From: a virus
Lineage: Duplodnaviria > Caudoviricetes
Strand: one strand, 5' to 3'
IMG/VR virus record: IMGVR_UViG_3300044716_000122
Coordinates: 31,046-95,045 of that record
DNA: 64,000 bases
This document shows positions 36,612-60,500 of this stretch, in pieces. Position 1 is the first letter of the stretch; every line of letters begins with the position of its first letter. A model generated the notes under the pieces. It was not told the origin of the DNA, searched no databases, and saw nothing but the letters and a program-made list of their open reading frames with translations. A program made the position numbers and the translations under genes.

Positions 36612-39065
36612 CTATTTCTTTTTTGAGCCAGAATCGTATTTGTTTTTATTTGTTTGAGCTATTTTTAGCTTGGTATCTATGTCTTTCTCCTTGAGTGCTA
36701 GCTCTTTCTCTTTCAAACTGAGCTCTTTATTCTTAGTTACTTTCTCGAAAGTTTGCTTAGAAATATCTTGAGCTATTTTAGTTTGTTCAATTAAGAGTCC
36801 AGTAGTATCTACGTCAGGATTGTAAGAACCTTCGTTAGCAATACCTTGAAGTTGTACAATCTGAAGTTTGTTCTCACGATCAAGTTGTTTGTTCATGTCA
36901 TCACGTTGAGCTTCTTTCTCATCTTGGGCAGCTTCCATTTGCATCTTCTGCTGGAACTGTTCTTGTTGTTGTTGCAACTCTTGTTGTTTAAGTGCTTGGT
37001 CTTGTTGACGAATAGCTTCTTTACGTTTCTGTACATCACCTAAAGTCTTACGAAGACTTCTTTCAGAGTTAGCAGTAAACAAGTCTACCATCTCAGAAAG
37101 CTCTGCTCCATTCTGCATAGCAGGCTGAGCCAATTGCTTTAACTGTTCTAGAGTTACTTTGTCTTCTGCGTACGAGGATACAAACACAAACAACTCATGA
37201 AGTAGTTCGTTCTTACTTACTCTTAAGAATACATTCTCTAGTTCAGAGTTAAGATAGTTAAGCGTAGAAGTAGGTTTCTGCAATTCAATGTACTGAGCCA
37301 TATCTAGAATAGTCTGATATACTCTCTGAAGTACGTTGTCATGCCAAGCAAACCAAGTCTCTGTTTGAGCAAAAGATTGAATCAAAGCATTGTTAGCAGC
37401 TGTTGCTGTATCTGATGCCTGTGAGTTACCTAAACGTTGACGAGTAATACCTACCAACTCATAAGCTTCTAGACGAAGTTGTTGAGCCAACTGAATACGT
37501 GCTTGGATTTCTTGAGAACGTGTAAGGTCAATACGAGAGAACTGGTTAAACTGTACAGCTCCTCCTGTATTCTCGATTGAAGTATCAATCAAAAGAGTAC
37601 CTCTGTTCTTAGCATTCCACAACATTGTCTCAATAGGATCCTGAGAGTCTTTCTTAGGAACAACTTTAAGGTCACCTAAGAACACTACTCCAATCTCTTT
37701 CTCTAGTAGTTCCCATAACTGGTTCATACAAATGTTATAAAGAACTTGGTAAGGCTTAAGAAGATCTAATAAAGATTTACCTTGAGTGTTACGAGAAGTA
37801 TTAATGATTCCTACTAGGGGACAATCTTGAATAAATTCTAAAGGTTCTATGTTTACGTAGATGTTAGCTCCAATCTTGATTCCTCTCCACCACTCGTTGA
37901 TCCAAAGTTCTTCAACAGAAATATCTCCTAGAGTTTTATCCATCTTATACTCTTCAGATACAAACATCTCTTGCTGGTATCCTTCTTCATCTAGGAAAGT
38001 TCTTTTAAAGATCTTTTTCTTAGACTGCCAGTAACAGGTAATTACCGTATAGGCATGCTGAGAGTTAAATGAGAATACGTTATGGTCAATACCTCCGTTA
38101 GCAAAGTCACCTACGTTCTCAAATGTCAACTGCCACAAAGGATCGTTAGGATCTGGAAGAGCAGGAGCCATAGGAGAGTATTCGTTGTTTCTTAAGTTCT
38201 GAAGAGAACGATCTCTTAAATGTTCTACTTCTTCTCCTGTTAAAGTATAGCGATCTACAATCTCAGTCATTGAAAGAACTTCAATAAGTCCTAGTGCCCA
38301 ACAGTCTGTTGTATACTGAGCATTACGGTTACCTAAGTACCATACGTTAGAAGGGTTCTCTACTTTATAATTAAATCCTAAACGAGAGTTATCAGGGTAG
38401 AAGTGGTGAAACTCTTTACCTGTTACCAAGAAGTCTAGGAATGATTGTTGAGATTTATCTCTAAAGTTAAAATGATATTTAAGAGCATTAAGAGTTTTGT
38501 TACCCCACTCTTCAGCAACTGAAGTATAATCCAAGATTTTATTCTGGATTTCTTGCTCCATCTGTGCTCTCTGTTCAGGGTCAATCTCTTGTCCTTCTAG
38601 TTGAGCCTCAAGGTTTTTTAAGAAGTGTTCTTTAATCAACTCAGTTCTAAAGTCAATAGTTTCGTTAATTGCTTCATCATCTACAGCTTTTACTTTGTAT
38701 TTGTGAGGACGGTTAATCAACTCTCCCTTTAACTGATTGATAGGAGGGTTTACTATTGGATAATGTTTTAAGTGCTGAGGAACTTCTGGATCTTGGTTAG
38801 GAGCATCTTCCAAGTAACTGATTAGCTCTTGATAATCTGCAACGTTTGTATAGTCAGCAAAGTTAAATTCTCCGTTAAGTAAGCGGTAGTTCTTTCTAAA
38901 TTCTACATTCTGCTTGTATTGTGCAAATGCAATATTTGCAAAATAGTCCATAGTAGACTTTATCCAATGTTCAGACTGCTTCTCTTTTAAGCTTACAAAT
39001 TGCTCGGGGTAGAAGTAGGCATGATTGACAGGGTCAGTATGCTCTTTAAATGCTTCAATAATCAT
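36612..39065 (-). CDS. Portal protein
   Basis: 817 aa; HYPIVNPPINQLKGE, WINEWWRG, LLKPYQVLYN and GITRQRLG motifs; Gln-rich C-terminal barrel. Confidence 0.88.
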   Translation of the reverse strand: MIIEAFKEHTDPVNHAYFYPEQFVSLKEKQSEHWIKSTMDYFANIAFAQYKQNVEFRKNYRLLNGEFNFADYTNVADYQELISYLEDAPNQDPEVPQHLKHYPIVNPPINQLKGELINRPHKYKVKAVDDEAINETIDFRTELIKEHFLKNLEAQLEGQEIDPEQRAQMEQEIQNKILDYTSVAEEWGNKTLNALKYHFNFRDKSQQSFLDFLVTGKEFHHFYPDNSRLGFNYKVENPSNVWYLGNRNAQYTTDCWALGLIEVLSMTEIVDRYTLTGEEVEHLRDRSLQNLRNNEYSPMAPALPDPNDPLWQLTFENVGDFANGGIDHNVFSFNSQHAYTVITCYWQSKKKIFKRTFLDEEGYQQEMFVSEEYKMDKTLGDISVEELWINEWWRGIKIGANIYVNIEPLEFIQDCPLVGIINTSRNTQGKSLLDLLKPYQVLYNICMNQLWELLEKEIGVVFLGDLKVVPKKDSQDPIETMLWNAKNRGTLLIDTSIENTGGAVQFNQFSRIDLTRSQEIQARIQLAQQLRLEAYELVGITRQRLGNSQASDTATAANNALIQSFAQTETWFAWHDNVLQRVYQTILDMAQYIELQKPTSTLNYLNSELENVFLRVSKNELLHELFVFVSSYAEDKVTLEQLKQLAQPAMQNGAELSEMVDLFTANSERSLRKTLGDVQKRKEAIRQQDQALKQQELQQQQEQFQQKMQMEAAQDEKEAQRDDMNKQLDRENKLQIVQLQGIANEGSYNPDVDTTGLLIEQTKIAQDISKQTFEKVTKNKELSLKEKELALKEKDIDTKLKIAQTNKNKYDSGSKKK

Positions 39066-39094: not shown

Positions 39095-41104
39095 TTAGTA
39101 TCGGAAGGGGGATGAGGTTGTACGGAACAAAGAGTTCCCTTTCTTTTCTCGGAAGTAAGCCTGGATTCTATTATCATCGTTTGAGTTAGAAATAATAACC
39201 TGAGTAGTAAGAGTCTTAGCCATAGCTAGAGTTAATCCAAATGAAATAACTCGGTCAACGTTTAACTTAGGGGTAAACTTAATTAACTCCTTAATCAAAA
39301 GAGGATCTAACATTCTGGTTACTCCTAGTCTTTCTTTTACAATAGCTCCATCTTCGTCTCTCTCTACTTCTATTACCTCGGTTATGTATTCGATAATAAG
39401 AGACATCAAATAGTTTTTAATGTCTTTAGTCATGTGAATACCATAGTCACGATTAACTGTAGAGTTAGGGTGAATGTCATTTAGGAACTTAGGCGTCTTC
39501 TCTAGAACCTTGGGAGATTCATTCTTGTCTACACAGTGCTGGATAAAACCATAGTCCATGTTTTCACAAAGAGTTTTAGCATTGTAATACTTAAGAAGCA
39601 TCTTAGTTATCTCATACCAAGTCTCAATCTTCTTAGGACGACCTGTGTAACAAGCTACAACTATATTCTGCCAACCTTCTCCGCTTAGATTGTGGACCCT
39701 CTTATAAATATAAGTAGAACCCAAAGAAGTTGAGTAGTGTGCCTGCGACTGTTTGTATGGATCCGTTCCTGCTGTATAAAGTCCATAGGGGGCTTCTGAC
39801 AGAGGATATTCCCAAATCTGAACACAACCCTCAATGGGATCTGTGGACTTAACAGGGAAGTTAATAACGGGCTTCTTGTCTGTAAACTTGTGTCTTATCT
39901 TTCCATCAGAGTTAATGTAGAGTTCTACATTGTCTGCTTGGATTTCTTGAGCACTTAATTTCTGTAGTTGTTCTTGAAGTAAGTCTACAGGAAATATGTT
40001 CTGAGATAGTTCTAAGAAACACTCTTCGTGATTCAAAGGATAGTACATTACTTCTTTTAAGTAAGCTTCTAAACCGTTTGATTTCTTAGTCTGTTCTCTA
40101 GACTTTAAGATAAGTTCTTTTCCTTTCTCTTCGTCTGCTACCCAAATCTTAATTATGTCTAACTCAGAAGGATCTTCTTTACCTAAGTAAAGTCCTAGGG
40201 GAGTTTCTTGCTTTGGAACTTTCAAAGAACGTGTACCTGGAATAAAGAGTCCATAAGACTTTCCTGTTTCATTAGACTCTACAGGAAGAAAGTTATAAGC
40301 TTCAGGATTGTTAAATAACTCTTCTAGGTCTGCTGCCTTAGTCATATCTCCAGAAGTTCCAATTACAAAAGGAGAACAACGCCAGCCATAAGGACTGTCA
40401 AAACAAGGAGTAGTTGCCGCTAAGCAAGAAAGGATCTTTCCTTTTCCTCCTTCTTCTAAAAGAAACGAAGATAGAGTAAGACCTGCCGCTGCTTCCGTAT
40501 TGTTGCCTTCATCAAAGTTTCTTACGTGGAACTTAGACCACTCATTACGAGAGTTAGTTCTCTTATCTTTAAATCCTAAAGTTACCTGTCTCTTCCAGTC
40601 ATCCTCAATACGAGGGAACCTAAAGTAGTCAGGAAGATTTCTAATACCTAAGTCTACGTAGTCTGTGATTACTTTTAAGTCAGGTTGGTTAAGCGCAGAT
40701 ATCAAGTTGTCAGAACCTTTCTGTGTAATGGCTTTGTGAGCCATATAAGAAGAAGTTAGAACTGACTTAGAGATACGTCTAGATCCTACCATCACAACTC
40801 CTTTCTTTCCGTCTATATGATTCTCTGCTTTATGGATAGTTTCATCTACTGCTAAGTAGGTATCCCAAAGCTGAGGTTTGTCTAGCTTTCTAATTTGACG
40901 CTTACCTACCATTGTATCTACATAAATAGACCAGTAGTTTAAATGCCAATAAATAAAAGGCGAGAAATAAAATCCATTAATAGTTACACCTTCTGTAATC
41001 TTTTTGTCTTCGTTCTCCCAAAATGCATCATACTCCTCTGAGCCAATCTCAGGGAAGGACTTAACATTAATAAAGAATTCTGGACTTTCTAGATTAGCGT
41101 GCAT
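39095..41104 (-). CDS. terL: Terminase large subunit
   Basis: Walker A-like GSRRISKS, Walker B FLLEEGG, nuclease motifs GTDPY and NVDRV. Confidence 0.9.
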   Translation of the reverse strand: MHANLESPEFFINVKSFPEIGSEEYDAFWENEDKKITEGVTINGFYFSPFIYWHLNYWSIYVDTMVGKRQIRKLDKPQLWDTYLAVDETIHKAENHIDGKKGVVMVGSRRISKSVLTSSYMAHKAITQKGSDNLISALNQPDLKVITDYVDLGIRNLPDYFRFPRIEDDWKRQVTLGFKDKRTNSRNEWSKFHVRNFDEGNNTEAAAGLTLSSFLLEEGGKGKILSCLAATTPCFDSPYGWRCSPFVIGTSGDMTKAADLEELFNNPEAYNFLPVESNETGKSYGLFIPGTRSLKVPKQETPLGLYLGKEDPSELDIIKIWVADEEKGKELILKSREQTKKSNGLEAYLKEVMYYPLNHEECFLELSQNIFPVDLLQEQLQKLSAQEIQADNVELYINSDGKIRHKFTDKKPVINFPVKSTDPIEGCVQIWEYPLSEAPYGLYTAGTDPYKQSQAHYSTSLGSTYIYKRVHNLSGEGWQNIVVACYTGRPKKIETWYEITKMLLKYYNAKTLCENMDYGFIQHCVDKNESPKVLEKTPKFLNDIHPNSTVNRDYGIHMTKDIKNYLMSLIIEYITEVIEVERDEDGAIVKERLGVTRMLDPLLIKELIKFTPKLNVDRVISFGLTLAMAKTLTTQVIISNSNDDNRIQAYFREKKGNSLFRTTSSPFRY

Positions 41105-42102: not shown

Positions 42103-42547
42103 ATAATTTCTGGTGGTTTAATATTTGTGTCTGATATGTTCTATCCATATACTCTATGGTTTGTTGGTTATAGAGTTTTTTAGATTGTCCTCTTTCGTAT
42201 CTTTCTTTAAATAGTCTAAGCCAATCTTCTAACATGTAGTAGTTAGCATAACCTCTGATTGCTGTGAGTCCTTGTCTTTCTGTCTCATAAGTTAATAGAT
42301 ACTCGGACTTAAGTTTCTTAGCTATTAGTTTGATTGCTCTAGAAGGATTAAAAACTAAAACTCCTAAGCCAGACAATCTAACTTTAACTGTAGGTAGCTC
42401 TACTATTTCCTCAATGGTTTTCTTTAAGTACCATTCGTATACAGTACTTACCTTATCAATAGTAAGACCCATTTCTTTTGCTACATCTGAATAGGCAGCA
42501 TAGGTCTTTATCTCAATGGTTTCGTATGTATCCTTTATTGAGGTCAT
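42002..42547 (-). CDS. IHF/HU-like protein
   Basis: Two N-terminal helices followed by VRLSGLGVL. Confidence 0.5.
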   Translation of the reverse strand: MTSIKDTYETIEIKTYAAYSDVAKEMGLTIDKVSTVYEWYLKKTIEEIVELPTVKVRLSGLGVLVFNPSRAIKLIAKKLKSEYLLTYETERQGLTAIRGYANYYMLEDWLRLFKERYERGQSKKLYNQQTIEYMDRTYQTQILNHQKLYESLQRVHGPEPEGAKEFEQSIGGSSNEDSESI

Positions 42548-42897
42548 GCAGTTGCTAAAGCTTCTTGCTTAAGAACAGGTTGATCTAAAGTAGAAAGAAC
42601 CAAAGTAAGTGTGACACCTTGCTTGCTAGTAGGACACAGTCTTGGGTTGACTGCATTCTTTTCTAAGATGCCCATCTTTCTTAACTTAGTTATTCCATTA
42701 GAAATAACTTGGATTGATGTGTCAAACTCACTGGCGATTCTTTCTTTTACTACTTTGTCTAAAGTACCGTAAAATGAACTATGGGCTAATATACTGGTGT
42801 ACAGGTCTGATAACCTATACCCCGCAAGTCTAAGTAATACATCAATGTATGCCTGATGCAACTTAACTCCTTCTTCGTATTTACGTGCTACTTTCAT
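42544..42897 (-). CDS. Winged helix-turn-helix protein
   Basis: IASEFDTSIQVISNGITKLRKMGIL; start moved to ATG 42897 (AAACCAACCAATG leader, promoter just upstream). Confidence 0.55.
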   Translation of the reverse strand: MKVARKYEEGVKLHQAYIDVLLRLAGYRLSDLYTSILAHSSFYGTLDKVVKERIASEFDTSIQVISNGITKLRKMGILEKNAVNPRLCPTSKQGVTLTLVLSTLDQPVLKQEALATA

Positions 42898-42921
42898 TGG
42901 TTGGTTTTGTTTTAACGTAAA

Positions 42922-42951
42922 CAAATATACTATCTTAACAAAAAAAGTCAA
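42922..42951 (-). promoter_or_regulatory. Bacteroidota sigma-A type promoter
   Basis: TTG-N19-TATATTTG. Confidence 0.7.
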
Positions 42952-43069
42952 GTTATATGTTAACTCAAAGAATACTTTTAACTTAAGATATTAACCGTGT
43001 TAACCCAACTCTTAACACCTATGGTTATTTTAGTGAAAAACTATGTCTAGACAAAAAATAATTAAAGAT

Positions 43070-43087
43070 TATATTTGTACAAGGAGG
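43070..43087 (+). promoter_or_regulatory. -7 promoter element and Shine-Dalgarno sequence
   Basis: TATATTTG at 43070-43077; AAGGAGG at 43081-43087, 7 nt before ATG 43095. Confidence 0.55.
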
Positions 43088-43094
43088 ATTTGTT

Positions 43095-43367
43095 ATGTCG
43101 ATGGATAAAATTAAAAAACCAAATGCCCAGGAAGTATTTGATATTTTCTTACTAGCACTCCAAGATGAGCAGGTAAAGCTAGAAGGAGATATAGGAGGAT
43201 TTAAATTAGCTCTCTATGATGGCTTTAAAGCATTCACTTATCGTAAAAAGTATAACGAAGAAATGCTTTTTGACTACATTGAAGAAGCATTAACAGAACT
43301 TTTAGATGAAGACCAACCTATGCAACAGACTGACTACATGCATGCTCAGAAGTCAGCAGGAATTTAA
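43095..43367 (+). CDS. Small acidic hypothetical protein (the only convincing plus-strand gene)
   Basis: 90 aa, lies in a region free of real minus-strand genes, has its own promoter element and SD. Confidence 0.7.
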   Translation: MSMDKIKKPNAQEVFDIFLLALQDEQVKLEGDIGGFKLALYDGFKAFTYRKKYNEEMLFDYIEEALTELLDEDQPMQQTDYMHAQKSAGI

Positions 43368-43397
43368 TCCCACAATTTATCCACAGAGCAAACAGTT

Positions 43398-43700
43398 GAC
43401 TACAAAATGTAGTTACCTTCGTAGTGACATCACATCTTTGTGTTCGCAGACGAGGATTTAAAAGTAATCTGCTAGAAGTTGGATTGTATGAGTAGCCCTC
43501 AGAGGTGAAAAGAGGTTTCTCCGATAGTGTCAAAATGTTCTAATAAAGTTTACAGTGCTCTAACCTACAACCAATAGACCGTAGGCAATAAGTGGACAGA
43601 ATAGAGACTTAGCTCTGAGGAGCTATTTGGTTAAAAACTGCTGTAATATAAGTTAGAATAGAAAGTCAAAATAGACTACTTCTCGGAGAGAGAAGGAACC
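43398..43700 (+). ncRNA. Candidate structured non-coding RNA
   Basis: Several long-range complementary segments whose non-Watson-Crick pairs are G-U on the plus strand (see findings); boundaries approximate. Confidence 0.55.
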
Positions 43701-43704
43701 TATC

Positions 43705-44151
43705 CTATTTTAAACTCTCAAACCCACTCTTAAACGACTTCTCTAAAGCTTTAGAATAAGCTTTTCTGTTATGAGGAATACCTTCTACAGAAACAAACAT
43801 AGCATTAACGTAAACTACTTTACTAGCTTCTCCTTGAAGAAGAATTCCATTTACGTTAATTTCTGTACTTACAATGTATTCTCGTTTAAGAAACTGTAAG
43901 CCTACAATATTTACAAGTTGTTCTGGCATTGCAATGGATTTGATTTTTCCTGAAATAGGACTGCCCTCATTACATAATTGGTACTTGGCTGAAGCAATCT
44001 CTTCTAGAGTAGTTTGTGCTCCAAAGATTATAGGTCTTCCTCCTATCTCTGTTACAGTAGCAATTGAGGTTACAGTGTCAATCTTATAGCATTGAGCACT
44101 CAGAGAAGTCATCATAGTGACTAAAGCGGAAAGTATAAATAGTTTTTTCAT
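43705..44151 (-). CDS. Exported protein with signal peptide
   Basis: MKKLFILSALVTMMTSLSA-Q signal, alpha/beta mature domain. Confidence 0.7.
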   Translation of the reverse strand: MKKLFILSALVTMMTSLSAQCYKIDTVTSIATVTEIGGRPIIFGAQTTLEEIASAKYQLCNEGSPISGKIKSIAMPEQLVNIVGLQFLKREYIVSTEINVNGILLQGEASKVVYVNAMFVSVEGIPHNRKAYSKALEKSFKSGFESLK

Positions 44152-44161
44152 AATTTAATAG

Positions 44162-45145
44162 TTAGTAGGTTACTGCTCCAGCATAACCAGGAGCTATTAT
44201 GTAGAGATTTAAAGTTCCTCCACTAGTTAAAGTAGAAGTTGTATGAGTGGAAACTCCAGGATAAGTTGCACGTACATTTGTAGTAGCCGCTTTAATTGCA
44301 TTGTATTGAGAAGTAGTAAAGATTCTTACGTCAGGAGCTGTTCTCCACTTAGAAAACCTTCCTGCTTTTCTTGCAGCCACATAATACTTGTCTGCTACTG
44401 AAAGTAATCCATCTTCATTTACATCATACATGTGAAAAGACAAACCATTTCTTGTAGTTTTTCCTAGTATAGTATTAGATACTCCTTGGATATCTGAGGT
44501 TGCATAAGCCTGGACTCTAGTAGGGGCAGCTATCTCTATGTAGTACTCCTTAGAAGGATCATAAGTCTCAGAAATAGAATAGTAACCCGAAGAGTTAGTA
44601 TAAATAGTTTTATAAAGGGTCCAAGAAGAAGTTGTTACTATGTAATCAAATTCTATAACATAAGCCAGACTACTACTATTGTTTAAATCATTCCACTTAC
44701 CGCTACCTACAAATTGAATGTAGTCTTCATTACCTGAGTTATTGGGTTCTCCTGAGTTCCAGTTTGTGTAAGAAAAAGTTTCTCCTGTTACCCATTTCCA
44801 AGTCCCCTCTGTTACTTCATCTGTTAGTCCTATCCAACCAGAAGGCCAAAGATTAAATAAGAAACTATTTTCACCTGAACTTGTAACTGTTACTAAATAA
44901 CCACCCATAGCAACACAGTTAGCTTTAGCTGTAGTCCAGTTAGCTGTTCCTGTAGAACGATAGTAAGAGTGCCCATTATAATTACTCTGAGAAGTAAATC
45001 CTGTTATAGTAGAATTTGTCCTTCTATATAGCTTTACAGCCACGTTGTTTGCACCAGATCCATTTGCATTATACAAGTATCCAGAATAAGTGAATTGTGC
45101 ACTCAGTGCGTTCACAAAGAAGAATAGAACAATAACCCACCTCAT
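44162..45145 (-). CDS. Exported C-type lectin plus dockerin-like protein
   Basis: Signal peptide ending LSA-Q; CTL motifs YNGHSYY, WIGLTD, WNSGEPNN and WND; Ca-loop DVNEDGLLSVAD. Confidence 0.8.
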   Translation of the reverse strand: MRWVIVLFFFVNALSAQFTYSGYLYNANGSGANNVAVKLYRRTNSTITGFTSQSNYNGHSYYRSTGTANWTTAKANCVAMGGYLVTVTSSGENSFLFNLWPSGWIGLTDEVTEGTWKWVTGETFSYTNWNSGEPNNSGNEDYIQFVGSGKWNDLNNSSSLAYVIEFDYIVTTSSWTLYKTIYTNSSGYYSISETYDPSKEYYIEIAAPTRVQAYATSDIQGVSNTILGKTTRNGLSFHMYDVNEDGLLSVADKYYVAARKAGRFSKWRTAPDVRIFTTSQYNAIKAATTNVRATYPGVSTHTTSTLTSGGTLNLYIIAPGYAGAVTY

Positions 45146-46605
45146 ATCAATAACTTTGCTCCCATTAAGATTTGAAAGTTGAGAATGTCCTGACCTGCTA
45201 CATAAGTTCCTCCTCCTGTAATACCTAGACCAAATGTCTTAGTCATCTTCCAGGTAAGGTTTACAAAAGGAATTACAATAGGCTTAGCTTTAAATAAAGA
45301 CTCTGTATAATACTTAGAGTAGGGAGAATAGATACCTGCCATAATAATTGTAGCATCTATATGTTTAGTAAGTTTTCCCTTATACATAAATCCCCCTATA
45401 ACAATAGTAGAGATCATTTGTTCTCCGTAGAGTTTACCATAAGTTCCAGCAGCTCCGTAGAGTGCTGTAAAGTTCTTGACTGAATTTACTCTAACAAACA
45501 GAGCTGTGTTAGAGAAGGCTTTAGGCATCAGACTCATTCCATCTGATACTACACTAATGTGTTTATGCCCTTTTTTGTTTGCTCCTATCCATGAACGGAC
45601 ACAGGAGATATTACCGATCTTAGCATTAAGCATATAATCGGCTGAAAACCCAAGAGAAGAAGTACCATCTCCTTTTACTCTTGTAAAGGAAGCAGTACCT
45701 CTTGCATCTTGTGCTCCATCAGACTTAGTCTGAATACCAACTAAATCACCCGTTACTATGATCGCAGGCTTAGCAACTTCGGCTTTAGCTTTATTGGCTG
45801 CTTTCACAGTACCACCAGACTGAGACTTTTGTTGCTCAGTCTTAGTTTCTTCTACTTTTTGTTCTGAGGGTTTCTCGGTTTGTACTTCCGTTTTTTCTTC
45901 GGTTTTACCACTGGAGGAGCCACTACTTCCTGAGCCACTTCCACTTCCACTGCTACCACTGGAGCTTCCGCTACTACTTCCACTACTTCCACTACTGGAG
46001 TTGTCACCACTGCTTCCTGCATTACCGTCTCCGCTGCTTCCACTACTGGATTGGTTACTGCCTGAGGTTTCTGAGGAGTTACCTCCACCGTTTGATTGTC
46101 CGTTTTCTCCTGACGAGCTGCCAGAATTACCAGAACCACTAGAGCTACTGCTAGTACGATTCCGAGAGTTAGTTCGATTGTCATTGCTATTGGTTTTATT
46201 GTTAGTTCCTACGTTAGTTCCTGAAGAAGTACTCCCACCTACATCTACGTTAACACTTCCTACATTTGATATGGCCCCTAGATTCATAACATTACTTACA
46301 ATGTTTAAGGTCGCATTTGTAGTCGTTGTTGTTGTAGTAGTTACTCCAACTCCTTGACAGGGTGATGTATTTTTATACTTCAAATATACACTATTTATCC
46401 AATTATCAAATGTTCCATCTGTTAATTCTGTATAAGAGAAAGTTTGTACCTGTCCATAGTAAGCAATTACTATAGGACTAGACATATTTGCGTTAATAAA
46501 TTTTAACTCTTGTGTACACGGATCTGTGTAAGAATACATAAAGCTCTGGCCTTTGAGGGACAGAGCTATCATGAATAGGATTAATATCTTAGTTTTTAAA
46601 TACAC
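45142..46605 (-). CDS. Exported protein with Ser/Gly linker and probable C-terminal outer-membrane beta-barrel
   Basis: Signal peptide ending LKG-Q, long S/G linker, alternating hydrophobic strands ending FQILMGAKLLI. Confidence 0.6.
   Translation of the reverse strand: MYLKTKILILFMIALSLKGQSFMYSYTDPCTQELKFINANMSSPIVIAYYGQVQTFSYTELTDGTFDNWINSVYLKYKNTSPCQGVGVTTTTTTTTNATLNIVSNVMNLGAISNVGSVNVDVGGSTSSGTNVGTNNKTNSNDNRTNSRNRTSSSSSGSGNSGSSSGENGQSNGGGNSSETSGSNQSSSGSSGDGNAGSSGDNSSSGSSGSSSGSSSGSSGSGSGSGSSGSSSGKTEEKTEVQTEKPSEQKVEETKTEQQKSQSGGTVKAANKAKAEVAKPAIIVTGDLVGIQTKSDGAQDARGTASFTRVKGDGTSSLGFSADYMLNAKIGNISCVRSWIGANKKGHKHISVVSDGMSLMPKAFSNTALFVRVNSVKNFTALYGAAGTYGKLYGEQMISTIVIGGFMYKGKLTKHIDATIIMAGIYSPYSKYYTESLFKAKPIVIPFVNLTWKMTKTFGLGITGGGTYVAGQDILNFQILMGAKLLI
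45852..46184 (-). CDS. Nested out-of-frame gene: membrane-anchored protein with basic tail
   Basis: ATG with leader AACAATAAAACCAATAGCA, a clean TM helix, a V/E/A/P stalk and a KPKKKRKYKPR tail. Confidence 0.5.
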   Translation of the reverse strand: MTIELTLGIVLAVALVVLVILAARQEKTDNQTVEVTPQKPQAVTNPVVEAAETVMQEAVVTTPVVEVVEVVAEAPVVAVEVEVAQEVVAPPVVKPKKKRKYKPRNPQNKK

Positions 46606-47842: not shown

Positions 47843-48313
47843 TTAGTTTGTTTGTCCTAATGCTTGTATATAAGAGTCAATGATTCTAGACACGGCTTCA
47901 GGCTTTTCATCGGCTTTAAATTTAACTTTAATCTTAGCCATCCCTGAAGAACTTGGATTGATTCCTGAGTCTACTTCAATTCCTTTTATATTGTGTTCGT
48001 ACCCCTTCTTCTTAAATAGTCCCAGTAGAGACTTCTTAAGACTGGATACTTCCTTCTCCTCATCCCCAAAAATTAATCTAGCTTCAAACTCTATATCTAA
48101 CTCATCTAGTCCAATAGAAGAGTGATCTGCTAGAATATAAAGAGGCACTAGTAACTCCTTGTCCCCAATCATAAAGTTTGTAACCTTTGGAGTACCATCC
48201 TCATTAAAGTAATTTCGTAGAGCATTAATGTGTTGTCTTTCACTAATACTCTGAGAAACCATGGCGGCCTCTAATAGACCGCCTACAAGTTCCTCAATGT
48301 TTAATCTTGCCAT
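47843..48313 (-). CDS. DUF2589-family protein (short partner)
   Basis: L..AA..SQ, VPL..LA.H..I.L.EL.IEFE and PEAVSRIID motifs. Confidence 0.7.
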   Translation of the reverse strand: MARLNIEELVGGLLEAAMVSQSISERQHINALRNYFNEDGTPKVTNFMIGDKELLVPLYILADHSSIGLDELDIEFEARLIFGDEEKEVSSLKKSLLGLFKKKGYEHNIKGIEVDSGINPSSSGMAKIKVKFKADEKPEAVSRIIDSYIQALGQTN

Positions 48314-48339
48314 ACAGCAAAGTTAGTTAAATTTTCTGA

Positions 48340-48930
48340 TTAAGATTCTTTACTCAACGGAACCAAAGAAGGCTCTAACATTGCAGTAAGGAAGTCAGAT
48401 AATTTAAGCATGCCTTCTGTTGGAGGCAACTGTTCTGCATGTACTTTTACTTCGTACTTAGCTGAGTTATCAGTCTGCCTAGTGTTCTCTTTGTGAGCAC
48501 TTACGCTACCAGATACCTTAGCATTGAAACTCATACCCCACCATTTGCCACCTGCAGTTACTTCATAAGCTGTCTCAGAATCGTTAGATTCTTTAGACAT
48601 GTCTGAAGTTTTTACTTCCATAGTGAAATTGATGTCAGCAGAAGTAATTGCCAAAGAAGGCAACGGAACCAAAGGAAGCATAGGAACTTTACTGTAAACA
48701 GTCTTAAGTTCTTGAACTCCTGTGTCTCCGTCTGTGAATACACGTTGCATCTCTACATCAAGTGAGCGTGCAACATTAGCATCACCTTTTTTCTCAAAAG
48801 CTACCTCAGAGATGTATCTCCAAGTTACTTCATTTAATTTAGCTTGTCCTTTTGCCATTCCGACAATAGGGCTTACAATAAGGTCTTCGATAGGAAGTCC
48901 TCTGAACTGATCTGCAATTGAATCTGCCAT
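48340..48930 (-). CDS. DUF2589-family protein
   Basis: F.GLPIEDLI..P, VPMLPLVPLPSLAI....INF.MEVK and R.TDNSAKY.V.V.A.Q.PP.EG motifs. Confidence 0.75.
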   Translation of the reverse strand: MADSIADQFRGLPIEDLIVSPIVGMAKGQAKLNEVTWRYISEVAFEKKGDANVARSLDVEMQRVFTDGDTGVQELKTVYSKVPMLPLVPLPSLAITSADINFTMEVKTSDMSKESNDSETAYEVTAGGKWWGMSFNAKVSGSVSAHKENTRQTDNSAKYEVKVHAEQLPPTEGMLKLSDFLTAMLEPSLVPLSKES

Positions 48931-49778: not shown

Positions 49779-50147
49779 TTAATTTTCTTCTCTTTTACTA
49801 TATTTAGCAGCTATGATTTCTGGGGTATCGTCTTCCTCATCTACTTTAGAGATTAACATTTTATCTCTATCTTCAGAATTGAACCAGTAGTCAACTACTT
49901 TGTTTAAGTTACCTACAAAGGCACCCAACAAAATAAGTAACATTTCTTTCCAATCTTCTCCAATAGATGCTCCTAAAAATACTGCTGCATTAATACCAAC
50001 AATAATTAAAGTAAACAAACCTAATACAATTGCTGTAATTCTCCAACGATTAGCTTGCATTTGTTGTAGCATATAGTAGAACCTGTTCTTAGGATCTACT
50101 GCTACTGGCTCTGCTTGGGTAAAACCAAGTGTTTTTTTAATGTTCAT
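49779..50147 (-). CDS. Two-TM membrane protein (holin-like)
   Basis: Two hydrophobic helices, VVDYWF.S motif. Confidence 0.55.
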   Translation of the reverse strand: MNIKKTLGFTQAEPVAVDPKNRFYYMLQQMQANRWRITAIVLGLFTLIIVGINAAVFLGASIGEDWKEMLLILLGAFVGNLNKVVDYWFNSEDRDKMLISKVDEEDDTPEIIAAKYSKREEN

Positions 50148-52045
50148 TTTTGTACAATTATTTTTGAATGTAATACTTCTGTCTCAGTTGTTACAGAAAG
50201 GATATAGAGGCCATTAGAAAGACGATCTAGGTTTGCACTATACTTGTACTTACCTGCGGGCATACGTTGTTTTAAAATAGTCTGTATGCGTCTTCCTACC
50301 TCATCAGAGATAGCCATGTCTACGTTAGAGTCTTCTTTAATCTTGAATTGAATCTGAATATCTCCTTCTGTAGGATTAGGAAATACTATAATAGAGTTTA
50401 AATCATTAAGCGAAACAGTTCCTTTGTTAACTCTACGTACTTCAATAATACCCATAGCAGGAGTGATGTTCATATCCTTAGAGTTTTTGTCTCCTACGTA
50501 TTTAGCACCTGTCCATAAAGCTGCACTTGCCCAACTATCTTGAGGCTTCTTAGCAATGAACTGAACATTGAAAGCCTGTTCTCCGTCATTAAGCATGTTC
50601 TCGTTAGTTAAGTCAGCACCTCCCCAAGATACTATACCATTAGAAGGGTTCATATAAGTAGTCCACTTCATCATCTTCTCAGAGTTCTCAATACCTTTAA
50701 ACTCTAAGTAAGCTGTGTCGTACTTAAGATCTAACTGTAATGCACCTAAGTTCTTTCCGTTAGTTAAAACTTTAACAGGAATGTTAACTAGGTTTCCTTC
50801 TTCTACACTTACTTTGGGCATGTTTACCTCAATAGTTTCTGCAGGGAAATCATAACTTACAGTTTCGTCAATAATGTAACGCTTTGCATTAGCAGAGTTA
50901 ACAATCTTAATAGGAGTTAAACGAGCCATCTTAAATCCTGTAGAGTTTGCATCTCCTTTAACAGCTACATAGTAAGTAATAGAATCTCTTCCATCTACAG
51001 AGTAAGTAAAGTTATTTACAGTAGAGTAAGTAGCAGTTAAGTTAGAAGCAGATCCGTTGATTGAATTATATTCAGCAACTGTGAAGAACATTACATCTTT
51101 CTTTGAGTTAGGCCAAGCAGAGAATCTACCTGCCAAACGTCCGTATACAGAGTATACATCAGCAATAGAAATATCACCAGTAGTACCGTTTACATCCATT
51201 GTGTAGTAATCAAATCCTGCGGGAGTGTATTGACCTAAGATAGCTTGGTTAACCTTCTGTGCATCTGCAGTAGAGAATACGTTACCTGGAGTCATTGTAT
51301 CACCTTTAACTGCAATACGTACATCCCAATAAGTAGTATCTAAGAACTTACGGAATACAGTAACCCCGTTAGAGTTAGTTTTCTGTGCAGCAACTTCAGT
51401 CCAGGTAGAAGAACCTTTAGCTCTTTTCTCTAAGCTAACTGTTAAGTTCTTAGCATCTGTACCTGTAACGTTCTTAAACTTAGTAGCAAATCTTAATACC
51501 TTTTGGTTGAAACGTCCACCATAAGAGTAAACTACCAAAGTAGTGTCGTTACCCCAGTTAGTAGCAGCTCTATTAGAGAATGACTTAACACCTGCAACTT
51601 TTAAAGTCTTGATAGAATCTAAACTGTTCCATACAGACTCAGCAGCGTGAGTGAAAGTCAAATCAAATGTAGCTCCGTTAGAATAGTTGTAAGTAGAACT
51701 AGTACCTGTGTAAGCCAAGGTAACTGTTAAGAATCCTTGTGTGTTACTATCTACGTACTGAAGATATTGATCTGTAGTAGAAATCTTAAGAGAAGGAACG
51801 ACTGCAGTAAAAGCTGTTTTGTCGTAGAACACACGGAATTGCATACCTGTGATCTTCTCTGAAGTAGAAGTGTTATAGAAATGTAGAGGAGCAACTGTCT
51901 GACCTACAGTGTTAGTAGCTACTTGATAGCCTGAGTCAATGACTACCCAGTGACCTGTACCTGGAGAGGTAGCAGAACTTTGTGCTGATACATTGCCAAC
52001 CAACAATGTAAGCACCCCGATGAAGACTTTAATTAATTTGTTCAT
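50144..52045 (-). CDS. T9SS-secreted protein: cohesin, Ig/dockerin, cohesin, type A CTD
   Basis: Signal peptide VSA-Q; cohesin-like ITGMQFRVFYD and VNIPVKV...LGALQLDLKYD..YLEF; DVNG..GDISIAD; C-terminal VFPNP...GR...LSNGLYIL...KIIVQK. Confidence 0.8.
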   Translation of the reverse strand: MNKLIKVFIGVLTLLVGNVSAQSSATSPGTGHWVVIDSGYQVATNTVGQTVAPLHFYNTSTSEKITGMQFRVFYDKTAFTAVVPSLKISTTDQYLQYVDSNTQGFLTVTLAYTGTSSTYNYSNGATFDLTFTHAAESVWNSLDSIKTLKVAGVKSFSNRAATNWGNDTTLVVYSYGGRFNQKVLRFATKFKNVTGTDAKNLTVSLEKRAKGSSTWTEVAAQKTNSNGVTVFRKFLDTTYWDVRIAVKGDTMTPGNVFSTADAQKVNQAILGQYTPAGFDYYTMDVNGTTGDISIADVYSVYGRLAGRFSAWPNSKKDVMFFTVAEYNSINGSASNLTATYSTVNNFTYSVDGRDSITYYVAVKGDANSTGFKMARLTPIKIVNSANAKRYIIDETVSYDFPAETIEVNMPKVSVEEGNLVNIPVKVLTNGKNLGALQLDLKYDTAYLEFKGIENSEKMMKWTTYMNPSNGIVSWGGADLTNENMLNDGEQAFNVQFIAKKPQDSWASAALWTGAKYVGDKNSKDMNITPAMGIIEVRRVNKGTVSLNDLNSIIVFPNPTEGDIQIQFKIKEDSNVDMAISDEVGRRIQTILKQRMPAGKYKYSANLDRLSNGLYILSVTTETEVLHSKIIVQK

Positions 52046-54592: not shown

Positions 54593-57500
54593 TTACTTGT
54601 TTTTTAATAGTTCTATCTCAGCCCTTAAAGCCTCGATCATTGTTTGTTGTTCTTTCATTGCTTCTACCAATAGAGGGATAACTTTAGTGTAAGCCAAGTT
54701 CTTGTATCCATCTTCTTGAGTAGTAACCGCTTCTGGAAGTACTGCCTCAACATCTTGAGCAATAAGACCTACATCATGTGTGCCTACGTGCTCACCTGAG
54801 TTCCAATCAAACTCTACACCACGTAGAGATTTAATCTTTTCTACAGGAGTAGTAATAGGAGTGAGGTTATCCTTAAGTCTAGAATCTGAAGGCTGAACAA
54901 CTGTGTAGTCAAAAATTACTTGGTTTAAGCCTCTTGGAACGTAGAACATTCTTGAGTCTGTACTGTTCTCTGCAATACGTCTGAATTCAATGTCTTGACC
55001 TCCTGCATCTCCAGTAAGAAGTATCTTAAATGTTTTCCAACTAGAATCTGCTTGACCTCTCAATAAGAAGTAAGTCAAAGGATCTTGGTTATACCCTACG
55101 TTAGAGTGAACTTGTAAACCTGTTCCATTACTTCCAGCAACAGTACAAGTATTACCTACTTGGTTTACTACAGTTTTCCAAGCACTCCAGCTACCATTAT
55201 ATCCAGATCTATAAGCCAAAGCTCTGTATGCACCTCCAGTATTAGCAACATCTTCAGGGAAGTACATTTGCATCAAAGGACCTCCAGTTTCACCATAAGA
55301 TAAAACAGTACCATAACCATAAGAATCACTAGGTCTATTAGCTCCAGTGTGACCTAATGCATTAGATACAATTAACTTAGCAGTAATAAAATAGCTATTC
55401 CAATCTTGACCATAGATATCTCCAAACTTAGTAAGCTGTTGTGATATTGTAGCGTAACTTACAGATTGGCTAGCGATGTTTCCTGTATTAATTGCTCCAG
55501 ATACAGTTTGATAAGTACCACTAGATTCATAGGCCATAGACCCTAATCCTAATTGAGACTTAACGTGAGCAACACTAGACTTCCTTAACCATCCATCTCC
55601 ATTACTTGTATAGAATGAGTTGATAGTTGGGTTCTCTGTTTCAGATACGTTTGAGTTAATGTAATGAGCATAGATGTAGTTGTTAGCATCTCTAATAACC
55701 ACTGTGTTTGCACCTACACTACCAGAAGGAGCATATCCACCTACAGTGGCAGCGCTACCCGTAGTATTCTGATTCCAAGTAGGAACTGTTCCAGTTAATC
55801 CTGAATAAGCCACGTTGGTGGCTGTTGCTGCATTACCTGATACCGAAATACTCCATGTACCACTTGCCCCAGTACCCGTTAGTGTAGGAGAATAACTTGT
55901 GTAATTAACTGAAGTTAAAATATCACAAAAAGCTCCCCAAGTACTATCAATACCTTTTCTTAATCTTAAGCCAGGATTTCCAGAACCATTAACACCTGTT
56001 TGATTAACAAATGCTAACTGATAAGAAGAATCTCCTGTAGAGGAAGTTGTGCCATCCCAAGGATTAAATTGTAATAAACCTGCATAGTTACCTACAGCAC
56101 CTACACTTCCTGCTCCTACAAATGAAAATCTAAATGATCTAGCTGATGTTGTAGGATAGTGATTTGCACTACCTGGATTTCTGTCGTCATCATTATAAGA
56201 GTACCAACCTCCTGTATTAGCTAAGCCAGCAAAAGTAGGAGAGTTACCTGTACCTACACTCTGGTTAATGGTGTATGCTGTAATGTTACTAGCTGTTCCT
56301 GAGATACTAGCACTTGATGTAATATAACCACTTGGGTTTGTAGCATTGTACGGAGTAAAGCCTAATGCTGTGGTTACGTTACCTGAGTTAATTCCTGTAA
56401 TATAACCAGAGTTATTCGTAAACTGAGAAATGTTCATGCTAGTTAAAACACCTGCTTCATCAGCATATCCAGCAGCTGCTTTTGTCCAACTTCCCCAACT
56501 ACCACCTTCTTGTGTTCTATAATAAGTATACTTACGAGCATGATCTCTTGCTACAGCAGTCATTAATCCATAAGTACCATATGCATAATCATTGCCTAGA
56601 CCTTGTGTCTGTACATAGTATTGAGAACCTGATTGTGGAGTATCGTTAGCAGTAGAGCCTTGCATAAACCAAACACCAAAGTTTGGAATTGCTCCAAATG
56701 TTTGATACGTGCTATGTCCTTGTCCACTGTTATTCCAAAGTTGTATTTTGCTCAAGCCATTAAGCTGAGCTGAATTAGTTACTGATTGGCTTCCAATGTT
56801 AGCAGTTGTAATTGCATCTGTAATTCCATAACCACTAATTGTAGTTGGCTTAGATGAAACGTTTGCAAATGAAATACCTGTAATATACCCACTAGGATTT
56901 GTACTATTGTATGGGGTAAATCCAAGAGAAGCCTGCTTACTATCAAGAGCTGTTTGTAATCCTGTTACATCTGATATAGCGTGAGTATGTGCAGTAATAG
57001 AAGTTAAAAATCCTCCATAGTTACCTAGATCGTTTGTAAATTGAGACAAGGCAGTAGGACGAGAACTTACGTTAGTCCATGCTACTGATCCAGCAGATCC
57101 AGTAACACTAATGCTCCAAGTTCCTGAAGCACCTGTTCCTGCAAGAGACGGAGAGTAAGCTGTATAGTTTGCATCGTTAAGTAGTACTCTCCAAGGGTTA
57201 AATGAACCAGCATCGCCATTTCTTGTTCTAAAGGCAATACCTGTTCCACTACCACTATAGGCAGCGTTAAGTTGTAATGAGTATCCTGGTTCACTAAATC
57301 TAGCAATAGGTCCTGTATATGGAGCATTTACTGAATATGTAAATCCTGTAGAGTTAGCGTCCATTGTATTAGCATCAAGAGTAAATCCTTGATAATACAT
57401 TACATAAGACGGTTTACTTGATACATTACCCCATGCTACTGCATTTGCTGTACCTGCTGTTGTTGCGTAAGACACGGATTGACTTCCAATATTAGAAGTA

Positions 57501-60500
57501 GTAATTAATCCTAAATTAGAAATAAAAGTAGCAGGTGTTTGAAATCTTACATAGTCATCATCCGAACAATATATCTTGGTTATAGCAGAAGAGAATACTC
57601 CAGAAGGAGTATTAATCCATCCTGCTTGAATATATCCATTTGCATCAGTTCTAACAATTTTATTTGCTTCGTTATTTCTACTACTATGAACAGCTAATCC
57701 TCCTGCTGTGGATGCATTACTTACTGACTGAGACCCAATGTTACCTGTATTAATTGCAGATGCAATTGGTTGAGCCCAAGAAGAATAGTTAGATGAGTCT
57801 AGTACAGTTGCTTGAGCTCCAGCGCCATATGCATTTTTGTGACAATATAATGTACCACTTTCCCAATAGAACTGCCATCCATAGGCGTTGTTGTGAAATC
57901 CAGTTGTGTTAGAGGTTGGATTTACCATCAATGATACGTTTCCATTTGATGCATTAAACTCAATTCCGTTCCATCCATTTCTAGTGCCAGTAACTAGCCA
58001 GGGACCATAACTTCCATCATTAGGTCTTAAATGAGCACCATTTGTTGGAGAGTATAATCCATAAATACCATTAAGTTGAATCCAACTTTCAGGAATTAAA
58101 TAACCACTTCCATTTCTAGTAGGAATAGTATTAGCACTAGCTCCTACAGATACACTATATCCTCCTACAGTAGAGGAGTTACCTCCATTAGCTGGAGCAG
58201 AACCTGCTGTAGTGGCATAAGTAGCAGTAGCAGCATTACCGCTAATATTTGTCTGGTCACCTGTATTTGTACCACTTAAATTTGATGCAGACAATGTTCC
58301 TGCAAAATATCCATTACCTGTGCTAAGACCAATATATGCTCGTAATCCATTTGCTCCACCTCCAATAAAACCAATTGAATTACCTTCCATACCACCAACA
58401 GCAGAATCAATTTGCCTATGGTAAATACCCCAGTTTGAACCAGTGTCTGCACTATCTAGATAAATCCAAGAGTCTCTATCGTTTGGTTGACTGTATAAAA
58501 ATACGTTTGAAGAAGGGTTAACTGTTGTAAAACTATTAAGAATTAAACTGTTATTACCTCTATATCTTTCTGCAGTAATAGAAGAACTTGTAGTAGATCC
58601 TCTTCCAGTAACAGTAGCCAATGTATCTGTTTCTGTATATCCTGTAATATAACCAGAGTTATTTGTGAATTGAGAGATGTTCATTGAAGTTAACGCACCC
58701 GATGTAGTAGCATAACTTACAGATTGTGAACCTATATTACTTGTAGTAATTGCAGTTGAAGCAGCTTGATAGCCAGCACTTGCATGATTTCCCCACCCAT
58801 AAGCTGTATTCCATTGTGTGGAATCTCCATAACCAGAAGAGTAAATTACAGCTGCTATAAAGTTTTCATACGATCCCCCTGGGTTATTTCTAATAGCCAT
58901 TCTACCACTAGATTCCATCATGATACTAGAAGCAACAACACCCCCCCAATGGAATGCTAACTGAGGTGCATATATTTCGTTTGTATTTCCACTTCCTCCA
59001 CTATTCTCTCTTACTTGATAATTCGTTGTATAAGATGTTCCTGTTGAAGTACTTTGGATAGTACCAAGCCCAGAAAGATTTGTAGCATTACCAGCACTTC
59101 CTGAACTGCCAGTTACATTAATACTCCAAGTACCACTGTTATAAACATAATCGGTATTATTTGAGTGTTTTAATCTTCCACCATATATGTAAACAGTTCC
59201 ACCACCATTGCCAAAGTACATATCCCCACTTGAGTAATGATTAAAATACATTTGATAAACATTACCTGCTCCACCTCTAGTGTCTATATGTAGATTACCG
59301 TTAGAAGTTCTTATACGAGCATATGTTGTATCTGTTGACCAACCACCAAGATGTAAAGCCGCAGCAGCATTATATGAGCTAGCTCCATAAACTATTAATG
59401 CAGCAGCATCCCCATTTACAATTGTATTTGTAACATTTGTATAAACTCCATTAGTCACACTACCCGCACTACCACTAATACTTCCTGATGATGTAATATA
59501 TCCACTAGGATTACTAGAGTTATAAGGAGTATATCCTAAAGCACCTGTTACTTGTCCTGATGTTATTCCTGTTAAGTATCCTGCACTAGCGTGGTTACCC
59601 CAACCAAATGCGGTATTCCAGTTAGAGGATGTTCCATAAGAAGTTGTAGTAATAAGTCCTGAAGTCCAGATACCTGAACCAATAGCTGTTTGGGTAACAC
59701 CATTATCCATGAATAAAGCCTGATGCCCTAAGCCAGATTTAGATTGTCCTCCTACATTTGTATGTGTCCATGCAATACCATAAAGATTTCCAGTAGTTGT
59801 ACCATTAGCAGCCAACTTATAAGAGTCCCCCATTGCAAATACACCTTGGTATCTCTCAGCAGAATAAAGACCTACAAGACCATTACCATAGTTTCCATCT
59901 GTGTAAACATTACTATAAGAACGTAGTGTGTCAGCATTAACAGTAACTAATCTAGAAGTACTATTAGGATCTAAATAATAATTTGTATCCTGTGAATCAT
60001 AAAAAATTGGCGCTCTCATTTGAGAGGCTGCATCTACACGATATAAATTACTAGTACTATTAGGATCTAAATAGTAACTAGTATTATTTGAATCATAAAA
60101 AATAGTACCATAAAAAGCACCACTCTTTTCTATTTTAGTATTTCCAATTGTTTTGTCATAAATAGGATAATCAGTATCTACTCCAACAAATAAATTTGCA
60201 AGAAAAATTGTATCACCACTAGCATTGTAATCGGTTAAGAATCCTAATTTAGCAGAAGCTGTACCTGGAGGAAACTTACCTCCAGCATTTGTACCACTAT
60301 AATCTACACCGTCCATTATACCTACATAGTTTGTCCATGTAGTTGGTACAATAGTGTATCCCAAAGCAATGTACTTATATGTACCACCTGCACTACCATT
60401 ACTTAACTTAGTACCAGAAGCAATAGAAGGACCATTCCAAGGACTAATCAGAGTAATAGTATTAGTGGCGTAGTTAACAGCTCCAGGATCCCATCTTCCT

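Follow-up and report, generated by a model that had tools for sequence, protein, structure and literature searches.

Comparison with related loci identifies a predicted structured RNA in an intergenic gap of a crAss-like phage. The stretch analyzed (hereafter the window) comprises 64,000 nucleotides (nt) of virus DNA (Duplodnaviria; Caudoviricetes), positions 31,046 to 95,045 of the 95-kb IMG/VR record IMGVR_UViG_3300044716_000122. Within it the predicted RNA spans 43426 to about 43660-43715, has two domains supported by covariation, and is non-coding and not spacer. It lies between a plus-strand gene for a 90-aa protein (p90) and a convergent gene for a 148-aa protein (p148). The gap is probably a stand-alone gene for a trans-acting, accessory, structured small RNA (sRNA) of ~235 nt (43426-43660, plus strand). 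In the clade of the window p90 and the RNA form one opposite-strand cassette; this cassette is optional in close relatives, and the 5′ domain of the RNA is found in unrelated phages.

An original prediction, made from the letters of the window, had proposed a long rod-shaped RNA here, crossed by a 14-bp helix. Every sequence it quoted lies where it was placed, and its central claim of a structured non-coding RNA on the plus strand is borne out by covariation in both domains. The continuous rod did not survive: there are two domains in the fold, and other helices take the place of three of the five drawn for the rod.

Secondary Structure and Covariation

The 5′ domain is a four-way junction of helices P1 to P4 (coordinates of all features are collected in Table 1). 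In an alignment of 29 diverse sequences (A4), 95.7% of the cells at paired positions are paired and 11 of the 20 pairs have changed on both sides (74 cells). None of 500 shuffles reached the observed pairing or covariation score, and sliding the partners against each other left 22-51% paired. A larger alignment (A6; 64 model matches, 52 distinct rows) gives 98.2% paired and 13 of 20 pairs changed on both sides, figures biased toward structure because this alignment is model-fitted. P3, which had been drawn as a small hairpin at 43446-72, covaries at all five of its pairs. Two outer helices of the predicted rod fared differently. The pairing of TTTCTCCGA (43516-24) with TCGGAGAGA (43683-91) is unconserved, its strands belonging instead to P4 and to a local hairpin at 43679-95, and that of AGTGTC (43526-31) with 43674-80 gives way to P1, for which a compensatory variant exists. 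A covariance model of this domain (R1) scores 105.8 bits on the window, the sole copy in the record.

In the 3′ domain a rod ends in a three-way junction. Across P6, P9 and P7 in 18 sequences (A5), 99.7% of cells are paired and 12 of 17 pairs have changed on both sides (66 cells), compared with 19-44% paired for slid partners. P6, as originally drawn, has changes on both sides in three of its seven pairs, with 99-100% of cells paired. P9 was absent from that drawing; all five of its pairs covary, and together with P7 it displaces the proposed helix TAACC (43561-65) with GGTTA (43629-33). P5 is plausible as predicted. Each of the 23 sequences tested allows an equivalent helix, and 87.5% is paired in the close clade, but in only eight of the 23 does it beat 95% of shuffles. 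The gain of further pair types, taken as a measure, did no better than shuffles (486/500 for A5 and 474/500 for the close clade). The covariance model of the 3′ domain (R2) scores 144.6 bits on the window. The joining strands of both domains (43473-77, 43516-35, 43586-601, and 43626-39) do not vary within the close clade and hardly vary outside it. Taken over shuffled and slid controls, compensatory changes are in excess, as in conserved RNA structures generally.

The 14-bp helix that crosses the two domains is genuine and specific to the window's clade. Its duplex has an energy of -26.3 kcal/mol (z -5.2, equaled by none of 200 shuffles), whereas the P8 region by itself folds at -7.0; 93% of the cells of the crossing helix are paired in the close clade. 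Two variants of the 3′ strand still form duplexes of -25.4 and -28.1. Among 18 related sequences, 11 keep the helix through changes (at most 3/200 shuffles as good), three are intermediate and four lack it (L114, L081, L109, and L065); in other clades a different hairpin stands in place of its 5′ strand. The original claim thus stands beyond chance for the window and does not extend to the family. Since the crossing helix excludes both P8 and the small hairpin at 43495-97/43504-06, it may be a tie between the domains, an alternative state or an intermolecular contact. A switch, as had also been suggested, is possible in this restricted sense, namely that the long helix and the two local hairpins are mutually exclusive.

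The apical part of P4 is variable. In locus L130 a gene for a 126-aa Endonuclease_7 protein (PF02945, E 1.1e-24; L130:1588-1968, minus strand) sits inside the apical loop, at the equivalent of window positions 43484-43515. It replaces the crossing-helix segment and leaves the flanking stem and the remaining RNA intact. That such an open reading frame (ORF) is tolerated there suggests that the apical loop is peripheral and that the RNA gene is a target of mobile endonucleases. Within the same apical region of other relatives, 43487-90 and 43510-15 switch jointly, UAUG occurring with AAGAGG or UGAG with AUUGGU, even between the near-identical loci L019 and L022. The two segments are non-complementary, and their joint switching may reflect either a tertiary contact or a patch of recombination.

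Strand, Promoter and Transcription

In the supported helices 64 cells are G.U and five are A.C, and 859 of 885 cells can pair when read on the plus strand, compared with 800 of 885 on the minus strand. Read from the minus strand, the G.U cells would become mismatches, so the plus strand encodes the RNA, in agreement with the G-U argument of the original prediction.

A box resembling the Bacteroidota sigma-A -7 consensus TAnnTTTG lies 4 nt 5′ of P1. Among 63 distinct sequences this consensus ends 4-9 nt 5′ of P1 in exact form in 39 and with at most one mismatch in 53. The -7 box of Flavobacterium occupies -12 to -5 (PMC9723704), and from a box at this position the predicted +1 is G43426, the first base of P1.

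The stretch is contained in lake-water metagenomes and parts of it in six metatranscriptome runs. RNA from three of the four metatranscriptome runs examined (three studies) yielded contigs covering 43428-43865, 43467-43676 and 43215-43458, the first of which has an end 2 nt from the predicted start. These contigs are a hint of transcription, not proof; gaps in cover and the small shares of runs X18-X20 were given no weight.

Where does the RNA end? The hairpin at 43679-95 probably marks its 3′ boundary and also terminates the convergent operon on the minus strand, and in other clades a hairpin with a T-run is seen by eye 3′ of the RNA. For an independent sRNA gene, then, the observations are a conserved promoter box, a contig end close to the predicted start and a terminator hairpin that was called on the minus strand only. 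A 5′ leader or riboswitch does not fit the layout: the gene downstream runs convergently in the window and varies in strand and family among lineages.

Distribution, Gain and Loss

All 17 viral contigs that encode a p90 relative carry the gap sequence directly downstream. The RNA is 80-98.5% identical in nucleotides among these loci and the p90 protein falls to 73%, so the RNA is conserved above its coding neighbor. A 19-base motif recovered 27 viral contigs, and a 20-base motif 38 viral and 61 metagenome stretches. A search with nhmmer on terminase-anchored loci gave matches in 32 of 51, including clades at 75-84% identity in the terminase large subunit (TerL). The 148 motif loci reduced to 138 of sufficient length and 66 distinct sequences, of which 63 were kept; those dropped were L117 and L128 (coding sequence, below 18 bits by model) and L130 (the insertion). 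The 20-mer matches of L117, L128, and L170, which fall in coding sequence, were put down to chance. Of the new loci from a gapped motif scan, 21 were tested with R1; 11 further viral contigs passed and 10 failed and were dropped as chance-level, by a rough estimate.

Clear R1 matches occur as well in lineages with nothing else in common with the window. Locus L098 carries genes for an HK97-type portal, TerL and Terminase_4, with the RNA divergent from the small-terminase gene; L101 and L131 have tRNA arrays on the strand of the RNA, directly downstream of it in L131; and L127 has an integrase beside it. R2 matches nine of 39 sources, all crAss-like, and none of the 25 R1-positive sources from other lineages. 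As R1 crosses lineages and R2 stays within crAss-like phages, the four-way junction is the common core and the 3′ domain a lineage-specific addition.

What travels with the RNA? Among 16 crAss-like representative loci p90 stands between the gene for a 135-aa protein (p135) and the RNA in eight and is missing from the other eight; no p90 homolog was found beside the RNA in other lineages. Comparison of neighbors across the representative loci revealed no protein family that accompanies the RNA across lineages. In relatives without the RNA (TerL 76-81% identical) the p148 homolog is followed directly by that of p135, with a gap of ~60-130 nt, in 11 of 12 loci; because p148 abuts p135 there, p90 and the RNA are an optional opposite-strand cassette.

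Among 185,579 species genomes the 20-base motif occurs in three, one of which looks like chance, and R1 matches one of 101 genomes of one order, a metagenome-assembled genome with two copies. This rarity marks the RNA as mobile cargo and not a core host gene. The integrase in L127 had raised the idea of a host gene serving as integration site, which was rejected on the same counts. A general linkage to tRNA genes was also rejected: in scans with Rfam on 13 loci and ARAGORN on 30, tRNA genes lie near the RNA only in L101 (17 Rfam tRNA matches), L105, L125, L131 and L179 (one tRNA). ARAGORN found 19 tRNAs on the opposite strand in L183, a locus that failed R1 and is possibly a chance motif match. 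An abiF RNA (RF03085, 42.6 bits) was seen at L156:4172-4207 (plus strand), ~1.4 kb from the RNA gene.

Proposed Mechanism and Alternative Explanations

Under the favored reading, that of a stand-alone trans-acting sRNA, a sigma-A type promoter would direct host RNA polymerase to start at G43426, and transcription would stop at or beyond the hairpin at 43679-95. The RNA would then act in trans with its invariant junction core as working surface, and in the window's clade the 14-bp helix would tie two domains, or two molecules, together. More tentatively, and by analogy with 6S and decoy RNAs, the core may bind, and so titrate or redirect, a conserved host or defense component. This would be the most economical explanation because the RNA has no linked protein, is dispensable and crosses lineages with its core unchanged.

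Several points weigh against this account. Folded as a single sequence, the plus strand reaches -82.1 kcal/mol with a z of just -2.07 (three of 100 shuffles equal it), modestly better than shuffled controls and than the minus strand (z -0.45), so that by folding energy alone the finding would be weak; the case for structure rests on comparison with relatives, not on single-sequence folding. The relatives that share the 3′ domain all belong to one phage lineage, and shared ancestry inflates the shuffle statistics, though not the counts of both-side changes. The -7 box of the window carries one mismatch, and no canonical plus-strand terminator was called in the window. The RNA-library contigs are assembled, strandless and possibly DNA-containing, and come from runs picked using this stretch as query. 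One of them (43215-43458) bridges p90 and the RNA, and co-transcription with p90, or processing from the p90 3′ untranslated region (UTR), is possible. The suggestion that the core binds a host factor draws solely on the conservation pattern and the absence of a linked protein.

Could the RNA work with p90 instead? In such a ribonucleoprotein (RNP), confined to this clade, p90 would bind the 3′ domain or the crossing helix. The RNA does lie directly downstream in every locus where p90 was found, the two are gained and lost together in one opposite-strand cassette, and one RNA-library contig covers the 3′ half of p90 and the 5′ end of the RNA. However, half of the crAss-like representative loci and all other lineages have the RNA without p90, which argues against an obligate form of the partnership first proposed; p90 also evolves far faster than the RNA, and its low-confidence model comes with no recognizable RNA-binding family. 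We regard the partnership as unlikely. Much the same holds for a catalytic or self-assembling RNA (a ribozyme or RNA-only oligomer) with the four-way junction as active or assembly center. Its attractions are variable arms around junction strands that stay the same from one unrelated phage to the next, the absence of any linked protein, an ORF tolerated in a peripheral loop as in mobile ribozymes, and a nearly palindromic P8 and 14-bp complementarity that could pair in trans; homo-oligomers have been reported for phage-associated ornate RNAs (PMC12286853). On the other side, relaxing the threshold to E up to 10 brings no match to any Rfam ribozyme model, the contigs (the sole material here) show neither ends nor joints indicative of cleavage, and many members lack the crossing helix, which together leave this explanation improbable. 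There is a similarly slim chance that the four-way core is a new RNA class, ribozyme or homo-oligomer, in which the crossing helix and P8 would pair intermolecularly and which would be traded among unrelated phages as a mobile anti-host or anti-defense module.

The position between convergent genes, the terminator-like hairpins at 43610-25 and 43679-95 and the contig that extends from 43428 into p148 would suit a cis-acting region, either overlapping terminators and 3′ UTRs of convergent units or an antisense regulator of p148. Yet a terminator has no need of 235 nt, nine covarying helices and joining strands that do not change, and the RNA retains a promoter of its own and is found beside other neighbors or with none of these genes; this explanation is very unlikely. 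A divergent member of a known family missed by Rfam, such as a reduced RNase P-like RNA, a tRNA-like RNA or a group I intron remnant, is brought to mind by short resemblances noticed by eye, both to RNase P (the strings AGAAGUC and ACAGAA-like) and to a cloverleaf (the four-way junction), by members in or beside tRNA arrays and by the homing-type endonuclease ORF in a loop. It is nonetheless highly improbable: no such Rfam model reaches E = 10, the covariation-supported helix order fits neither RNase P nor group I topology, the RNA is intergenic with its own promoter and not within a gene, and tRNA genes lie near it in a minority of loci only. The RNase P-like and hairpin-ribozyme-like strings noticed by eye were rejected for the same misfit of helix order and lack of a model match. 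A replication or packaging RNA had been proposed too, and the related alternative is an element that acts at the DNA level or is essential to either process (an origin, a pac site or a phi29-like packaging RNA). The RNA heads the terminase-side module in crAss-like phages and is divergent from the small-terminase gene in L098, but the whole cassette is missing from 11 of 12 related loci with homologous genes for terminase, p135 and proteins p125 and p181. The G.U asymmetry moreover points to a single RNA strand, the RNA is located elsewhere in other lineages, and neither phage packaging RNA (pRNA) nor any other Rfam family matches, so that such a role is extremely unlikely. The cassette-less relatives and the absence of p90 from half of the loci thus argue against an essential packaging RNA and an obligate p90 partner alike.

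Genomic Setting

The window carries almost all of its genes on the minus strand, p90 being the only sizeable plus-strand gene. Its major capsid protein matches Pfam Crass_capsid, and portal and TerL match PHROGs families. Searches of Pfam and PHROGs gave no match for p90, to which no family can be assigned; its homologs are at least 68% identical, a profile search returned only 14 clusters, and its AF2 model is helical with a predicted local distance difference test score (pLDDT) of 60, i.e., of low confidence. The interval from the p90 stop codon to the -7 box holds a small hairpin (43399-43413, ACTAC/GTAGT), in whose place each clade has a different one; it may terminate p90 or belong to the promoter spacer. 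In the RNA-bearing clades L006 and L029 other genes stand in place of p148. The p135 family adjoins the RNA in 16 of 33 representative loci, every one crAss-like; the upstream genes of other lineages, including the 132-aa genes of one of them, are unrelated to p135.

Table 1. Position of the RNA, its parts and neighboring genes in the window
Feature	Position	Strand	Remarks
5′ domain, four-way junction P1-P4	43426-43531	+	Covariation; core common to all lineages
P1	43426-30 / 43527-31	+	GACAY/GUGUC; compensatory GGCAC/GUGCC in one clade
P2 hairpin	43431-34 / 43439-42	+	
P3 hairpin	43446-50 / 43468-72	+	GCAGA/UCUGC in window; ACCUG/CAGGU, AGCUG/CAGCU and others elsewhere
J3/4 joining strand	43473-77	+	UAGAA
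P4	43478-83 / 43520-25	+	Apical part variable
Small hairpin in apical part of P4	43495-97 / 43504-06	+	3-bp stem; covaries by eye in eight variants
Crossing helix, 5′ strand	43491-504	+	Within apical part of P4; clade-specific
Crossing helix, 3′ strand	43613-27	+	Overlaps P8, nearly palindromic; terminator-like palindrome flagged on both strands
3′ domain, rod with three-way junction	43537-43659	+	Confined to crAss-like lineage
P5	43537-44 / 43652-59	+	GTTCTAAT/GTTAGAAT; A/U-rich, weakly supported
P6	43550-56 / 43640-46	+	TTACAGT/GCTGTAA
P9	43558-62 / 43602-06	+	CUCUA/UAGAG in window; CCCUG/CAGGG, UUGCG/CGCAA, CUAUG/CAUAG, CCAUA/UAUGG elsewhere
P7 hairpin	43564-68 / 43581-85	+	
Invariant joining strand	43586-43601	+	
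P8 hairpin	43610-15 / 43620-25	+	Variable length
Conserved joining strand	43626-39	+	
Hairpin CTTCTC/GAGAAG	43679-84 / 43690-95	.	Terminator-like call on minus strand only; stem kept, loop variable in relatives
-7 box	43414-21	+	TACCTTCG; Bacteroidota sigma-A consensus TAnnTTTG with one mismatch; 4 nt 5′ of P1
Gap	43368-43704		Between p90 (+) and convergent 148-aa gene (-)
p90, 90-aa gene	43095-43367	+	ORF; only sizeable plus-strand gene
p148, convergent 148-aa gene	43705-44151	-	ORF; neighbor, outside element
p135, divergent 135-aa gene	42544-42951	-	First terminase-side gene; neighbor, outside element
TerL	39095-41104	-	PHROGs family match
Portal	36612-39065	-	PHROGs family match

Other features of these genomes were noted in passing. 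The terminase ORF of L130 has 1429 aa compared with the usual ~669, which suggests an insertion or intein, and the terminase match of L042 falls into two overlapping pieces. The minus strand of the window holds giant ORFs at 1-12165 (>4055 aa), 54593-61903 (2436 aa) and 19882-24750 (1622 aa), of a size typical of crAss-like phages. Also on the minus strand, 44162-45145, 47843-48930, and 50144-52045 encode a C-type lectin domain, two DUF2589 proteins, and a protein with cohesin and type IX secretion sorting domains; the last, by its domain content, points to a Bacteroidota host. With a C-type lectin gene nearby, the template repeat of a diversity-generating retroelement was considered for the gap and rejected, as the gap is repeated nowhere else in the window. 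The 327-aa and 487-aa proteins (44162-46605, minus strand) are mosaic among relatives, many loci matching only residues 177-327 of these proteins, or 1-112 and 282-487, a pattern that looks like the swapping of middle or N-terminal modules.

Significance

Phage genomes are usually read as lists of proteins. Here a covariation-supported RNA comes with a promoter box, a modular make-up (a four-way-junction core in all lineages plus a lineage-specific extension) and a pattern of gain and loss. Its dispensability and its movement between unrelated phages with an unchanged core point to an interaction with a conserved host or defense feature. The RNA offers a tractable route into RNA-based host takeover in crAss-like and other aquatic phages, of whose biology little is known. 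The alignments behind the two domain covariance models could seed a new RNA-database family.

Comparison With Known RNAs

The original prediction did not recognize the region as a tRNA, tmRNA, RNase P RNA or intron, and searches agree. None of the 4227 models of Rfam 15 matches at gathering score anywhere in the window; these include RNase P, tmRNA, 6S, signal recognition particle and Y RNAs, group I and II introns, self-cleaving ribozymes, GOLLD, ROOL, HEARO, phage pRNA and riboswitches. At E up to 10, positions 42900-43800 give chance-level matches only (12.8-18.3 bits against thresholds of 33-60), and the distant member L098 gives sub-threshold ones of at most 23.2 bits (thresholds 40-150). 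On thirteen related loci Rfam reported tRNAs and the one abiF RNA elsewhere and nothing on the RNA itself. ARAGORN found no tRNA or tmRNA gene in the window. A group I intron is at odds with an intergenic position, an own promoter box, the lack of an Rfam match and helices that are nested except for the clade-specific one. Among GenBank phages, blastn with 42950-43750 returned no match. A literature search found no description of the RNA, with nothing relevant in the accessible parts of PMC10690425, PMC7886860, and PMC9226505. The first of these is an IMG/VR catalog of 10,006 candidate structured RNAs, some near terminase genes, whose main text, as far as accessible, has no crAss or Bacteroidota motif; its candidates resemble this RNA in data source and in the use of covariation, and its supplementary tables may list the RNA already.

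Of the systems compared, 6S and decoy RNAs are close to the favored reading in working model only (trans-acting, made by host polymerase, binding a conserved cellular component), a functional conjecture; unlike 6S RNA, this RNA does not have the layout of a rod around a central bubble, and it has no Rfam match. The phi29 pRNA is likewise a phage-encoded structured RNA, and the RNA described here lies beside packaging genes and has potential for intermolecular loop pairing. It differs in having no Rfam match, in being dispensable in relatives that share the packaging genes (absent from 11 of 12 loci with 76-81% identical TerL), and in being found with unrelated terminases. The tRNA cluster of phage T4 contains small stable RNAs, which are comparable by description only, as phage-encoded RNAs that lie, in some genomes, beside tRNA genes; the window has no tRNA gene. 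GOLLD and ROOL, large ornate RNAs that are often phage-borne and near tRNA genes, are likewise stand-alone structured RNAs with conserved junctions, variable arms, some copies in tRNA arrays and no linked protein. GOLLD and ROOL are roughly 580-800 nt long, however, whereas this RNA has ~235-290 nt, a different helix layout, no Rfam match and tRNA genes near a minority of its loci. Matched by no Rfam family or GenBank phage, this is a phage-borne structured RNA of the same kind as GOLLD and ROOL, unrelated to them in sequence, size and layout.

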